Positions 4,272 through 25,916 of a stretch of DNA of 64,000 bases are shown here, one piece after another. Where the stretch lies: the NCBI RefSeq assembly GCF_056712565.1, contig NZ_CM160072.1, one strand, 5' to 3'. Below the pieces are notes generated by a model, which did no database searches, had not been told where the DNA came from, and saw nothing but the letters and a program-made list of their open reading frames with translations. Each line of letters starts with the position of its first letter. The first letter of the stretch is position 1. The position numbers were made by a program, and so were the translations under genes.

Positions 4272-5861
4272 TTAATGGCGGAAGTGGCGCATGTCGGTGA
4301 AGAGCATCGCAATACCGTGCTCGTCGGCGGCGGCAATCACTTCGTCATCACGGATGGAACCGCCAGGCTGGATTACACAGGTCACGCCCGCAGCGGCGGC
4401 GGCATCAATACCGTCGCGGAACGGGAAGAACGCGTCAGAAGCCATCGAGGAACCTTTCACTTCCAGACCTTCATCGGCGGCTTTAATACCGGCGATTTTC
4501 GCGGAGTACACGCGGCTCATCTGGCCCGCGCCAATACCGATGGTCATATTGTTTTTGGCATAGACGATAGCGTTGGATTTCACGAACTTCGCCACTTTCC
4601 AGCAGAACAGCGCATCACGCAATTCCTGTTCGGTCGGCTGGCGTTTGGTGACGACGCGCAGTTCTTCTGCACCGACCATCCCCAGATCGCGATCCTGAAC
4701 CAGCAGACCGCCGTTCACGCGTTTGAAATCAAGACCCGGAACACGCTCGCCCCACTGACCGCAGGTCAGAACGCGTACGTTTTGCTTGGCGGCGGTGATT
4801 TTCAGGGCTTCTTCGCTGGCGGACGGCGCAATAATCACTTCGACGAACTGACGAGAAATGATGGCCTGCGCGGTTTCAGCATCCAGTTCGCGGTTAAAGG
4901 CAATGATGCCGCCGAATGCGGAGGTTGGGTCGGTTTTGTACGCGCGATCGTAAGCATCAAGAATGGAATTGCCGATAGCCACGCCGCAAGGGTTGGCGTG
5001 TTTCACAATCACACATGCCGGCTCGGCGAACTCTTTCACGCACTCCAGCGCCGCATCGGTGTCGGCGATGTTGTTATAAGAGAGGGCTTTACCTTGAACC
5101 TGGGTTGCAGTAGCAACGGAGGCTTCTTTCACATTCTCTTCTATATAGAAGGCAGCCTGCTGGTGGCTGTTCTCGCCGTAACGCATATCCTGCTTCTTAA
5201 TGAAGTTCAGGTTCAGCGTGCGTGGGAAGCGACCGGCGGCTTCTTTGCTTTCACCGTGGTAAGCCGGAACCATGCTGCCGAAGTAGTTGGCAATCATGCT
5301 GTCGTAGGCGGCGGTGTGTTCGAAGGCTTTGATGGCAAGGTCAAAGCGAGTTTCCAGAGTCAGGGAGCCTTCATTGGCATCTATCTCTTTAATAATGGCG
5401 TCGTAGTCGCTGCTCTTCACCACGATTGCGACATCTTTATGGTTCTTGGCGGCAGAGCGCACCATCGTCGGGCCGCCGATATCGATGTTCTCAACCGCAT
5501 CTTCCAGCGAGCAGCCTTCACGAGCAACGGTCTGGGCGAACGGATACAGGTTAACAACCACCATATCGATAGGCTGGATCTGATGTTCTTCCATAATGGT
5601 ATCGTCCTGGCCGCGACGGCCCAGAATTCCACCATGTACTTTCGGATGCAGGGTCTTCACGCGTCCATCCATCATCTCCGGGAAACCGGTGTAATCGGAA
5701 ACTTCGGTTACCGGCAGACCTTTTTCTGCTAACAGACGGGCTGTGCCCCCTGTAGACAGCAGCTCCACACCGCGTGCGGAAAGTGCCTGGGCGAATTCGA
5801 CGATACCGGCTTTGTCAGAAACACTGAGCAGAGCGCGGCGGACTGGACGACGTTGTTGCAT
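4272..5861 (-). CDS. purH: bifunctional AICAR formyltransferase / IMP cyclohydrolase
   Basis: 529-aa ORF starting [19 protein letters not shown], immediately upstream of purD on the same strand. Confidence 0.93.
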
Positions 5862-6149
5862 GGTAAATCCCCTGGATTTGACTATTACAGAGAGCGTTAG
5901 CTGAATTTTTCGCGAAAAACTCAGCTAACGCCCCTAACGGGGCATCCTTATTTTTCGCCCGCATTGTAACGAAAACGTTTGCGCAACGCTCGCGAATTTT
6001 TCTCTTTCAATGGTGATCACAATTTTGACAGTGTTTACCGTGGGAAAAATACAGAAATTACATTGATGATTGTGGATAACTCTGTGCGTAAAAAGGTATA
6101 AAGCGGGGTTTTGCTGGGGAATGCAGCAGTCAGTCATTTTTCTGCAATT

Positions 6150-19558: not shown

Positions 19559-23242
<3,684 letters not shown>

Positions 23243-23251
23243 GTGATAACA

Positions 23252-23276
23252 CCGGGGTATTTGCCCCGGTTTTTAA
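23252..23276 (+). terminator. rho-independent terminator after metH
   Basis: Hairpin CCGGGGTATTTGCCCCGG followed by TTTTTAA directly after metH stop. Confidence 0.8.
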
Positions 23277-23295
23277 TGTCATAAATAATGGATTA

Positions 23296-23622
23296 TTGAA
23301 CATGATAAAAATTGATGAAATAGATTTTTTCGCTTTCGAAGGATGTTCAGAGTCCGAAGTTACTGAACTATTAGGAAAAAAACCAACAGGTTATAATGAT
23401 TGGATGATTAATATAAAAACAGGTGTGGAGTGGGTATTTTATGATGGTCGTTATTGGTTAGATTTTCGTAAATCCAAAGAGGGTATAAGGTGTATCTCAT
23501 GCAGTATTCTGTATCACGATAAAAGTAAAGGGCGTATCGATGTCTTATTTAGTGAAGGTATAGCTGACAGAGGTTTAAAAAATACGGGTGGAGTGTTAAT
23601 CCAAAAACGCCCGCAATTATAA
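23296..23622 (+). CDS. hypothetical protein (AT-rich accessory ORF 1, no recognised family)
   Basis: 108-aa ORF in markedly AT-rich DNA; no TM segment or signal peptide; weak RBS so start (23296 or 23302) is uncertain; not recognised by me. Confidence 0.45.
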   Translation: MNMIKIDEIDFFAFEGCSESEVTELLGKKPTGYNDWMINIKTGVEWVFYDGRYWLDFRKSKEGIRCISCSILYHDKSKGRIDVLFSEGIADRGLKNTGGVLIQKRPQL

Positions 23623-23664
23623 TAATTCCTGGTAATATTTGTTTTCGTAAAAAGGATTTACTTT

Positions 23665-24114
23665 ATGCAACGTCAATATAAAAAATACATTCTTCTTTTT
23701 TGGGGTGTCATGGATGTTATCGCGATAGCCACATATCTGTTCTACTCGCTTGGTAATGGTCGTATCCCTTTTTATTCCGATATCGTTCATTCACTTTCTT
23801 TACTTAAGGATATCGGTGTTGAAGGCGGTTTTTACGCTTATGCAGTCGCCACTGTTACGCTACAAATAGTATTATTGCTCTCTTTATTCTTTTCTGCGCA
23901 ATGTTTTTTAAGACAAAAATTATTTAGTTTCTCTTTTTTGGCGATTCAGGAGTTTATGCGTTTTGCTACCGTAAGCTGTTCAATCTCCGTAATACCGTTG
24001 TTACTTAATTATTTTTATTCACAGGATCTGGTCTTAAATATTTCGTTGTTTATCTTCTCAGAGGTCACAAAAGTGACAACGATTATCTGGTGTAAACGAC
24101 AGGGGAAAGTGTGA
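23665..24114 (+). CDS. hypothetical small integral membrane protein (predicted 4 TM helices), AT-rich accessory ORF 2
   Basis: 149-aa ORF with four hydrophobic stretches; plausible SD AAGGA about 8 nt upstream of ATG; AT-rich codon usage. Confidence 0.55.
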   Translation: MQRQYKKYILLFWGVMDVIAIATYLFYSLGNGRIPFYSDIVHSLSLLKDIGVEGGFYAYAVATVTLQIVLLLSLFFSAQCFLRQKLFSFSFLAIQEFMRFATVSCSISVIPLLLNYFYSQDLVLNISLFIFSEVTKVTTIIWCKRQGKV

Positions 24115-24284
24115 CAGAAATAGCAACAGATACAGGTGGATTTTTATATAAATGCCTTTTTAAATGCTTTCTTGTATAAATCTCTTATACTGAAAGTACA
24201 TACAAGAGAAATGCCTGGATAAAAACAACGTGATTAGAAAAATCTTAACAGGAAAATGCATAACAAAAAGGAGAACCTGATTCC

Positions 24285-25916
24285 GTGCTAACTTTGCTTC
24301 ACCTGCTTTCTGCCGTCGCCCTGCTGGTCTGGGGGACTCATATTGTTCGAACAGGCGTAATGCGCGTCTTCGGCGCGCGTCTGCGTACTGTCCTTAGCCG
24401 GAGCGTCGAAAAAAAGCCGCTCGCCTTTTGCGCGGGGATCGGCGTTACCGCACTGGTGCAGAGCAGTAATGCCACCACCATGCTGGTGACCTCGTTCGTC
24501 GCTCAGGATCTGGTTGCTCTCGCGCCTGCGCTGGTGATTGTGCTGGGTGCAGATGTCGGGACGGCGCTGATGGCGCGTATTCTCACCTTCGATTTATCCT
24601 GGCTGTCACCGTTACTTATTTTTATCGGCGTGATTTTTTTCCTCGGACGCAAACAGTCACGCGCCGGGCAACTGGGCCGCGTCGGTATTGGTCTTGGGCT
24701 GATTTTACTGGCGCTGGAGTTGATTGTGCAGGCCGTAACGCCGATCACTCAGGCAAACGGCGTTCAGGTGATCTTTGCCTCGCTGACTGGCGACATTTTG
24801 CTGGATGCGCTGATTGGTGCGATGTTCGCCATTATCAGCTACTCCAGCCTTGCCGCGGTACTGCTGACCGCGACTCTGACCGCCGCAGGCATTATCTCTT
24901 TCCCAGTGGCGCTTTGTCTGGTGATTGGTGCAAACCTCGGTTCCGGCCTGCTGGCGATGCTCAACAACAGTGCCGCCAATGCCGCAGCCCGCCGTGTCGC
25001 GCTGGGTAGCCTGCTGTTTAAGCTGGTGGGTAGCCTGATTATCCTGCCGTTTGTTCATTTGCTGGCAGAGACAATGGGGAAGTTGCCATTGCCAAAAGCG
25101 GAATTGGTGATCTATTTCCACGTCTTCTACAACCTTGTACGCTGCCTGGTCATGTTGCCATTCGTTGACCCGATGGCACGGTTTTGCAAAACGATTATTC
25201 GCGATGAACCGGAACTGGATACCCAGCTACGGCCTAAACATCTGGATGTCAGCGCGCTGGATACGCCCACGCTTGCTCTGGCGAACGCTGCCCGCGAAAC
25301 CCTGCGCATTGGCGACGCCATGGAACAGATGATGGAAGGGCTGAATAAAGTGATGCACGGCGAGCCACGGCAGGAGAAAGAGCTGCGTAAGCTGGCTGAT
25401 GACATCAACGTTCTCTATACCGCCATTAAGCTGTATCTGGCGCGGATGCCAAAAGAGGAACTGGCAGAAGAAGAGTCGCGCCGCTGGGCGGAGATCATCG
25501 AAATGTCGCTCAACCTTGAACAGGCCTCCGATATCGTCGAGCGCATGGGGAGTGAAATTGCCGACAAATCGCTGGCTGCAAGGCGAGCATTTTCGCTTGA
25601 TGGCTTGAAGGAACTGGATGCGCTCTATGAGCAATTGCTCAGTAATTTAAAACTGGCAATGTCGGTTTTCTTCTCTGGCGATGTTACCAGCGCCCGTCGT
25701 TTGCGCCGCAGCAAACATCGTTTTCGCATTCTTAATCGCCGCTATTCCCACGCCCACGTCGATCGCCTGCATCAGCAAAACGTGCAGAGTATTGAAACCA
25801 GTTCGCTACATTTAGGCTTACTGGGAGATATGCAGCGTCTGAACTCGCTGTTTTGTTCGGTGGCTTACAGTGTGCTGGAACAGCCGGATGAAGATGAAGG
25901 ACGGGACGAGTATTAA
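24285..25916 (+). CDS. yjbB: Na+/phosphate cotransporter family (PNaS) protein YjbB
   Basis: 543-aa ORF with GTG start, multiple TM helices and C-terminal PhoU-like region; K-12 synteny. Confidence 0.85.
   Translation: MLTLLHLLSAVALLVWGTHIVRTGVMRVFGARLRTVLSRSVEKKPLAFCAGIGVTALVQSSNATTMLVTSFVAQDLVALAPALVIVLGADVGTALMARILTFDLSWLSPLLIFIGVIFFLGRKQSRAGQLGRVGIGLGLILLALELIVQAVTPITQANGVQVIFASLTGDILLDALIGAMFAIISYSSLAAVLLTATLTAAGIISFPVALCLVIGANLGSGLLAMLNNSAANAAARRVALGSLLFKLVGSLIILPFVHLLAETMGKLPLPKAELVIYFHVFYNLVRCLVMLPFVDPMARFCKTIIRDEPELDTQLRPKHLDVSALDTPTLALANAARETLRIGDAMEQMMEGLNKVMHGEPRQEKELRKLADDINVLYTAIKLYLARMPKEELAEEESRRWAEIIEMSLNLEQASDIVERMGSEIADKSLAARRAFSLDGLKELDALYEQLLSNLKLAMSVFFSGDVTSARRLRRSKHRFRILNRRYSHAHVDRLHQQNVQSIETSSLHLGLLGDMQRLNSLFCSVAYSVLEQPDEDEGRDEY

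Follow-up and report, generated by a model that had tools for sequence, protein, structure and literature searches.

A small four-helix membrane protein encoded at the metH-yjbB junction of Escherichia coli is a candidate orphan immunity protein with relatives in type VI secretion VgrG-lipase modules

A stretch of 64,000 nucleotides from contig NZ_CM160072.1 (assembly GCF_056712565.1), called the window in the following, carries between metH and yjbB an AT-rich accessory segment with two small genes, g1 and g2. Comparison of g2 with its relatives revealed a stand-alone copy of a gene that elsewhere lies inside type VI secretion system (T6SS) modules, between a VgrG gene and a lipase gene. In our judgement there is about an even chance that g2 encodes an orphan T6SS immunity-type protein. 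The original prediction, made from the DNA letters of the window, had named an orphan immunity function among the plausible roles of the two-gene cassette; this role is favoured here for g2, whose homologues are fixed in T6SS VgrG-lipase modules, and not for g1.

As judged from alignments and a predicted structure, g2 is an orphan member of a Pfam-less, so far nameless gammaproteobacterial family of small four-helix inner-membrane proteins. Sequence searches of Pfam, NCBIfam, PADLOC, PHROGs and PDB gave no match for g1 or g2, in agreement with the first description of both proteins as unrecognised, and a Pfam search at a lax threshold likewise left g2 and all of 19 relatives unmatched. No paper describing g2 or its small membrane protein family was found in the literature. 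The AlphaFold2 model of g2 (pLDDT 77) showed four long helices, in line with the four transmembrane segments initially proposed for the 149-aa protein, and an amphipathic helix at residues 37-50. According to the positive-inside rule, both termini are predicted to be cytoplasmic (N-in/C-in) and the conserved GRIPFYSD loop periplasmic. An alignment of 19 sequences revealed the invariant residues F12, W13, M16, D17, Q95, R99, S106, E133 and K136; the marks of the family in g2 are F-W-x-x-M-D in helix 1, the GRIPFYSD-type loop, Q..P.R at helix 3 and S-E..K in helix 4. BLASTP connected g2 to a T6SS-linked member from Pseudomonas (E 3e-15, 33% identity) and to a Klebsiella member (E 6e-13), and the comparison of the group of metH-yjbB orphans with the T6SS-linked group by hhalign gave 99.8% (E 2e-27) over 133 columns. 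Searching AFDB50 with Foldseek revealed 39 uncharacterised small gammaproteobacterial membrane proteins with TM-scores of 0.75-0.9 and nothing characterised. Scanning 100,044 species genomes by pattern revealed relatives of g2 in E. whittamii, Pseudomonas frederiksbergensis and an Enterobacterales bacterium. Two seemingly distant matches of a word search (P0033 and P0034) proved to be noisy assemblies with frameshifts, derived from this very locus in E. coli, and were rejected. Moreover, the g2-like gene of Enterobacterales bacterium CwR94 (L021, 3977-4400), which follows a gene that reads as autotransporter-like by its sequence, contains an internal stop or frameshift, reflecting either a pseudogene or a sequencing error, and was for this reason left out of the evidence.

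The T6SS modules with g2-like genes share one order: a VgrG ending in a domain termed here domain X, the g2-like gene, a class-3 (Tle2-like) lipase, one to three Tli-like lipoprotein genes and PAAR. This order was observed in 11 loci (L020, L022, L025, L034, L036, L039, L040, L046, L047, L049 and L050), hosted by Pseudomonas, Rahnella and metagenome or environmental contigs; eight of them came from a metagenome scan. In P. frederiksbergensis (L020), the gene for a 140-aa g2 relative begins 18 bases after the gene for a 1042-aa VgrG and ends 32 bases before the lipase gene. This VgrG matches TIGR01646 and the Pfam families Phage_GPD, T6SS_Vgr and DUF2345, and its C-terminal 190 aa match none. 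The lipase of this locus (696 aa; 666-696 aa among the module lipases) possesses a Lipase_3 domain with the motif GHSLGG and is followed by a lipoprotein-like gene. A tblastn search of plasmids found the same layout on megaplasmids of Rahnella aquatilis within a full T6SS cluster (Hcp, TssH, VgrG, g2-like, lipase, Tli-like lipoproteins, PAAR and VasK); chromosomal loci also appeared in the plasmid searches because the PLSDB "plasmid" records NZ_CP134663.1 and CP125156.1, of 4.9 and 5.4 Mb, are whole chromosomes. In Rahnella MEM40 (L025, 8388-10818), the Tli-like lipoprotein gene is present in three tandem copies, of which two are broken. In L034 (3408-4309), two tandem divergent g2-like genes lie within one T6SS module; tandem divergent duplication and arrays are typical of immunity genes. 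No recognisable adaptor (DUF4123) was found in the module. The only matches to Tli queries lay downstream of the lipase gene, none at the g2-like genes, which are AT-rich relative to their hosts within the T6SS loci too.

In every T6SS locus with available upstream sequence, domain X (about 110 aa) precedes the g2-like gene. It usually forms the C-terminus of VgrG, behind DUF2345 and a region read by eye as TTR-like, and in some Rahnella strains (L025) it is a separate open reading frame (ORF) that overlaps the g2-like start. Domain X is hydrophilic, carries the invariant motifs SMGDEGR, GKD, RD and SW.W.P, and had no match in Pfam or PDB. The same domain was found at the metH-yjbB junction of locus L030, where a 272-aa ORF (5190-6008) overlaps the g2-like start. 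Its last 115 residues represent domain X and are 52-53% identical to several VgrG tips of Pseudomonas type, and its N-terminal 150 residues match nothing. Displaced modules of toxin tip and immunity gene are known for Rhs and CdiA, and by this analogy the ORF looks like a displaced VgrG tip. L030 shows that a piece of a T6SS module of this kind was at one time delivered to the metH-yjbB site. Within the modules, the g2-like protein (40-80% identity) was the least conserved component in most pairwise comparisons, and Tli identity was below it in the three Rahnella comparisons with a Tli value. The identity of g2-like proteins was correlated with that of domain X (Pearson 0.89), the TTR-like region (0.84), the lipase (0.53) and Tli (0.53) across seven non-redundant loci; owing to the small sample and the non-independent pairs, this covariation is treated as a hint only.

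Homologues of VgrG, domain X, lipase, Tli and PAAR were not found in the 64-kb window, where g2 lies between g1 and yjbB; g2 is thus an orphan copy. Further g2-like orphans occupy the metH-yjbB junction in L018, L019, L029, L030, L032 and L033. Klebsiella has an intact g2-like copy flanked by pgm and kdpE (L023 6980-7417, L024, L035, L037-L038, L041-L045 and L048). The RefSeq name of this 145-aa Klebsiella protein (WP_004152228.1) is "arginine:ornithine antiporter", a name also borne by several relatives in AFDB, and on a four-helix protein of this size it is almost certainly an annotation error. Orphans with neither a VgrG nor a lipase neighbour are intact at two fixed chromosomal sites in several genera. 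The comparison of the window with E. whittamii (one pair) gave a ratio of nonsynonymous to synonymous substitution rates (dN/dS) of 0.13 at dS 0.62, and by this measure g2 is maintained under purifying selection.

In the window, the metH stop codon ends at 23242 and yjbB begins with a GTG start codon at 24285. The 1042 bases between them are filled by two ORFs on the same strand, separated by a gap of 42 bp, as the original prediction had described; the first ORF was then counted as 108 aa from a TTG start (23296-23622), and the second extends over 23665-24114. The features of the junction are as follows.

23243-24284, plus strand: AT-rich accessory segment from the metH stop to the yjbB start, replacing the unrelated 219-bp spacer of K-12 type
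23251-23278, plus strand: intrinsic-terminator-like hairpin (23251-23270) and T run of metH
23302-23622, plus strand: g1, 106 aa, predicted soluble cytoplasmic protein (WP_000590025.1, "hypothetical protein")
23665-24114, plus strand: g2, 149 aa, predicted inner-membrane protein with four transmembrane helices (WP_001189566.1, "hypothetical protein")
24115-24284, plus strand: 170-bp spacer 5' of yjbB, part of the cassette allele, with the yjbB ribosome-binding site near 24268-24280

The RefSeq names of g1 and g2 were taken from the identical locus in E. coli ATCC 11775. The G+C content of the segment 23243-24284 is 0.343, whereas the window as a whole has 0.52 and the genes metH and yjbB have 0.55-0.56; in 300-bp windows the value falls to 0.33-0.37 across 23200-24250. 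Third-position G+C amounts to 0.26 in g1 and 0.36 in g2, compared with 0.65 in metH and 0.63 in yjbB. These computed values bear out what had been estimated by eye, namely about 1 kb of AT-rich DNA behind the metH terminator, AT-biased codon usage of both genes and a foreign composition of the segment. The metH hairpin consists of an 8-pair stem (6 G-C pairs) and a 4-nt loop followed by TTTTTAATG, and it is kept in the loci of E. fergusonii, E. whittamii type and GN25. The 170-bp spacer between g2 and yjbB is highly conserved among the cassette loci of Escherichia, including those of E. whittamii type, and shares only the 13-nt AAGGAGAACCTGA with K-12. Since the spacer is unlike that of K-12 except for the ribosome-binding site, strains with the cassette should drive yjbB from a different promoter region, and the spacer presumably carries the yjbB promoter in these strains. 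Promoter-like matches were no commoner than expected by chance. No terminator-like site was found between g2 and yjbB, and read-through from g2 into yjbB possibly occurs in cassette strains. A check of the spacer upstream of yjbB for non-coding RNAs and riboswitches gave no Rfam match.

Among 5426 complete E. coli genomes, the cassette was detected in 1132, in each case as a single chromosomal copy with at least 95% identity, and the 219-bp spacer of K-12 type in 4293. Together the two account for 5425 of the 5426 genomes, which makes the metH-yjbB junction biallelic. The carriers mostly have the metH allele of the window and include strains labelled O25b:H4-ST131 and Nissle 1917. The short allele was seen in the K-12 derivative DH1, in SMS-3-5 and in the sampled strain ESDR8; in DH1 the 219-bp spacer contains no annotated gene, in line with what the original prediction had stated for K-12. 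The segment is thus accessory, as initially supposed, being absent from K-12 and from 79% of the E. coli genomes. In E. coli strain E07 (NZ_CM143880.1), a copy of IS1A is inserted within the cassette. The two alleles cease to be similar at the stop codon of metH and become similar again at the ribosome-binding site of yjbB; besides this site, cassette and K-12 spacer share only exact words of at most 10 nt, three of which are collinear. A simple insertion into the K-12 spacer was rejected, since target duplications and inverted repeats are lacking and the whole spacer is replaced, not interrupted. Around the segment only short direct or inverted repeats at chance level were found, and the annotation between iclR and pepE contains no mobility gene. 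The cassette and the short spacer are not an insertion and its empty site.

The same junction carries related genes in other Enterobacteriaceae. The g1-g2 arrangement is also found at metH-yjbB in E. fergusonii. In E. whittamii and matching metagenome contigs (L009 324-614, L019), an intact g2 is present alone, and about 290 bp with a palindrome that looks REP-like by eye, GCCAGATGCGCTACACTTATCAGGCCTA, take the place of g1. At the junctions of other Enterobacteriaceae, MetH is 90-96% and YjbB 90-98% identical to the E. coli proteins, and the g2-like protein only 30-40%. In L018, from another genus, both a g1-like and a g2-like gene are present, each about 40% diverged. L032 and L033 carry a g2-like gene without g1, and L014-L016 a g1-like gene only. 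In L029, the g2-like gene lies directly upstream of yjbB on a contig that is cut 36 bases upstream of the gene; in L030, it is preceded by a different gene. Such diverged versions, together with the lack of repeats and mobility genes, do not support a simple recent insertion into phylogroup B2, and sequence comparison indicates that the cassette predates B2 and reaches beyond it. When E. coli is compared with E. fergusonii (L012 and L013), the cassette is less diverged at synonymous sites (dS 0.10-0.12) than metH (0.26) and yjbB (0.96), which hints at a recent exchange of the cassette between the two species by recombination through the conserved flanks. Since loci with g1 only and with g2 only exist, the two genes are not an obligate pair; the comparisons indicate that they are real, fast-evolving and separable genes.

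For g1, the ATG start at 23302 (106 aa) is preferred, as in RefSeq, over the TTG at 23296 (108 aa). The protein has no hydrophobic segment, and neither a signal peptide nor a lipobox was found. With 10 Lys and 3 Cys in 106 aa, the original picture of a soluble, Lys-rich protein held, and its description as Cys-rich was overstated. The dN/dS of g1 was 0.3-0.5, based on few substitutions. An exhaustive phmmer search of 1.84 billion cluster representatives yielded no more than three genuine distant relatives (40-43% identity), which makes g1 a very rare family, seen only in Enterobacterales. Two of these lie on metagenome or read-assembly contigs with yjbB following. The third, from Serratia fonticola (L017 6001-6327, 41% identity), is a lone gene flanked by phage-tail-like genes and dapA, a long way from any metH-yjbB junction; this is the single case of g1 next to phage-tail genes. 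An origin of g1 as a phage moron was rejected, as tblastn gave no match in 50,697 phage records and the sole PHROG match (E 0.12) did not exceed chance. The idea that g1 is a remnant of VgrG domain X or of the 272-aa L030 ORF was likewise rejected (hhalign probability 0.16%), and two weak matches of the exhaustive search (P0040 and P0041) are repeat-rich and not g1 homologues by sequence. The R-C-I-S-C motif is largely conserved in the g1 family, with R63, I65 and C67 invariant. The best AlphaFold2 model (pLDDT 82.6; the other four models were poor) consists of two short helices and an antiparallel sheet, and it matched BLIP, XAC2610, BtiO, CdiI and BamE-like folds with weak scores, from one confident model out of five. 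g1 is an independent small cytoplasmic protein and not a partner of g2; as a guess from the model, it is possibly another orphan inhibitor or immunity protein.

In the reading that we favour at about even chance, the g2 family would protect the cell at the inner membrane, where the conserved periplasmic loop and buried polar residues may bind or block an incoming T6SS toxin. The toxin countered would more likely be the VgrG-borne domain X than the lipase, because the lipase already has its periplasmic Tli lipoproteins. The g2 of E. coli would then be an orphan immunity gene that shields strains of phylogroup B2 type from T6SS attack by other Gammaproteobacteria. Immunity is suggested by intact stand-alone copies, purifying selection, tandem paralogues, rapid divergence, coupling to domain X and a location at membrane and periplasm, which by analogy are features of immunity genes rather than of adaptors. 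Several points weigh against this reading. Neither a characterised relative of g2 nor a published account was found; the g2-like gene lies upstream of the lipase gene, and the lipase is already provided with canonical downstream Tli-like lipoproteins. The g2-like protein could instead assist the VgrG tip in secretion or loading, and domain X, being hydrophilic and devoid of a toxin signature, could be a lipase-docking domain. Moreover, the covariation stems from seven loci with non-independent pairs, and the context survey left out most of the Foldseek relatives (Yersinia, Enterobacter and others). A more far-reaching version, in which domain X is a new small soluble antibacterial toxin, the g2-like proteins are its immunity family, the orphans of E. 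coli and Klebsiella pneumoniae are active and the module forms a two-toxin spike with two immunity classes, is possible and can be put forward only tentatively.

The strongest rival is that the g2-like protein is a membrane accessory factor of the VgrG-domain X/lipase module, which for instance holds or loads the spike-lipase complex, and that the orphans are relics or have been re-used. A place between vgrG and the effector gene is usual for an adaptor; in known Tle2 islands a DUF4123 adaptor is found there (PMC9846239), and the g2-like module has no recognisable one. As the lipase is served by its own Tli-like lipoproteins downstream, the g2-like protein would be left as an accessory, and its covariation with the TTR-like and domain X regions of the VgrG C-terminus points the same way. 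However, the known T6SS adaptors are soluble, whereas g2 is predicted to span the membrane four times, and the adaptor and chaperone profiles DUF4123, DUF1795/Eag and DUF2169 gave no Pfam match for g2. Module-free orphans that stay intact at two sites, with dN/dS 0.13 in the one pair compared, are hard to reconcile with a dedicated loading factor, and the tandem divergent duplication in L034 is typical of immunity genes; we therefore regard an accessory role as rather unlikely. A role as Tli-type immunity lipoprotein does not fit either, as g2 lacks a lipobox and has four predicted membrane helices, and the Tli-like genes of the module encode different proteins.

The remaining explanations leave the T6SS modules aside. 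It is very improbable that g2, with or without g1, works with the phosphate exporter YjbB as a small membrane subunit or regulator and that the cassette is an alternative upstream region of yjbB. Indeed, several enterobacterial lineages have a g2-like gene immediately 5' of yjbB and in the same orientation, nothing like a terminator lies between g2 and yjbB, and the 170-bp spacer is strongly conserved; but in Klebsiella (between pgm and kdpE) and in the T6SS modules of Pseudomonas and Rahnella the family occurs away from any yjbB gene, yjbB is not accompanied by g2 in 79% of E. coli, and g2 falls to 30-40% identity where YjbB keeps 90-98%. A self-contained toxin-antitoxin, toxin-immunity or anti-phage abortive-infection module of g1 and g2, as also considered at the outset, is very improbable, even though the two same-strand genes are neighbours 42 bp apart, recur as a pair in another genus (L018, both about 40% diverged), and g1 has a predicted fold weakly resembling the inhibitor and immunity folds of BLIP, XAC2610, BtiO and CdiI. 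Each gene occurs alone at the same locus (g2 in E. whittamii/L009, L032 and L033; g1 in L014-L016), g1 is alone as well in Serratia fonticola (L017), and the relatives of g2 pair with VgrG-domain X and not with g1. As for defence, PADLOC-DB v2 contained no model that matched g1, g2 or any of their relatives with E allowed up to 1 or 0.1, and there is no phage homologue and no defence-island or mobile-element context. Finally, that g1 and g2 are spurious reading frames in AT-rich intergenic DNA, an outcome foreseen in the original prediction, is extremely improbable: they are short, AT-rich and devoid of known domains, and promoter-like matches occur at chance frequency, but both frames are open in distant lineages and across genera at 30-43% protein identity, g2 shows dN/dS 0.13 at dS 0.62, and the family motifs and the predicted fold are conserved.

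The candidate immunity function of g2 can be placed among known systems. Orphan T6SS immunity genes as such are already known, as in the orphan tsi genes of V. cholerae auxiliary clusters and the acquired interbacterial defence arrays of Bacteroidales. Like these, g2 is a stand-alone homologue of an effector-module gene, under purifying selection, compositionally foreign and variable between strains; unlike these, it occupies a fixed junction of the core genome as a single gene, outside any array or recombinase-associated island, and its neutralising activity is putative. The g2-like gene of the producer locus also differs from usual immunity genes in lying upstream of the lipase effector and not downstream. 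As in VgrG proteins with specialised toxin tips (V. cholerae VgrG-3/TsiV3), the VgrG of the module has a domain beyond DUF2345 and then a small gene (18-nt gap in L020), and L030 resembles displaced toxin-tip/immunity pairs in that C-terminal domain and small gene are kept together. In contrast to specialised VgrG toxins, domain X is a putative toxin with no recognised toxin fold, and the module adds a cargo lipase that is provided with immunity genes of its own. Another example of specialised VgrG tips with the immunity gene right behind them is given by the Enterobacter hormaechei vgrG-CT/vgrI sequences, as listed in the methods of bioRxiv 10.1101/2023.03.28.534661.

With the islands of the Tle2 family (V. 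cholerae TseL/TsiV1 with Tap-1; P. aeruginosa vgrG7, PMC9846239), the module shares a lipase with Lipase_3 domain and GHSLGG motif, followed by lipoprotein immunity-like genes that are sometimes in tandem. Those islands possess a DUF4123 adaptor and no small gene for a protein with four transmembrane helices (PMC9846239), whereas the g2-like module lacks DUF4123, its VgrG carries the TTR-like region and domain X, and the gene for the four-helix protein is present. g2 itself is no lipoprotein and is unrelated to the Tli proteins; the Tle/Tli islands of E. cloacae and the vgrG7 islands of P. aeruginosa differ from the g2-like module in layout as well. The immunity proteins of colicin A/E1 type and the predicted TspI1 of P. 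aeruginosa (PMC9846239) are similar to g2 in size, in having three to four transmembrane helices and in their place in the inner membrane, but no sequence or profile similarity between them and g2 was detected, and domain X, the neighbouring candidate toxin, is hydrophilic and shows no sign of being pore-forming, unlike the membrane-acting toxins met by the colicin-type immunity proteins. g1 shows a weak likeness to the alpha-beta fold of BLIP, BamE and OsmE-like proteins, with no sequence similarity and, unlike BLIP and BamE, with neither signal peptide nor lipobox.

What is new here is the g2 family, for which there is no Pfam entry, no literature was found and mis-annotation is frequent, together with the module layout and the fixed orphans of B2-type E. 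coli and of Klebsiella. The layout, with a VgrG carrying TTR-like region and domain X, a protein with four transmembrane helices, a Tle2-like lipase, Tli copies and no usual DUF4123 adaptor, is undescribed. If g2 works as an orphan immunity protein, a fifth of the sequenced E. coli genomes would be guarded against one particular T6SS weapon by a fixed single gene; the shielded strains would include those labelled O25b:H4-ST131 and Nissle 1917, and much of Klebsiella pneumoniae would be protected likewise, with a bearing on colonisation resistance and strain competition in the gut. If domain X is a toxin and g2 its immunity protein, gut pathogens would resist T6SS attack by competitors bearing the module. 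If g2 is only a relic or a loading factor, the junction would be an example of a biallelic accessory site.

Further downstream in the window, behind pepE, the window lineage carries sorE for L-sorbose 1-phosphate reductase (from about 27080 onward; L001 7835-9042), a segment which we take to be another one absent from K-12.

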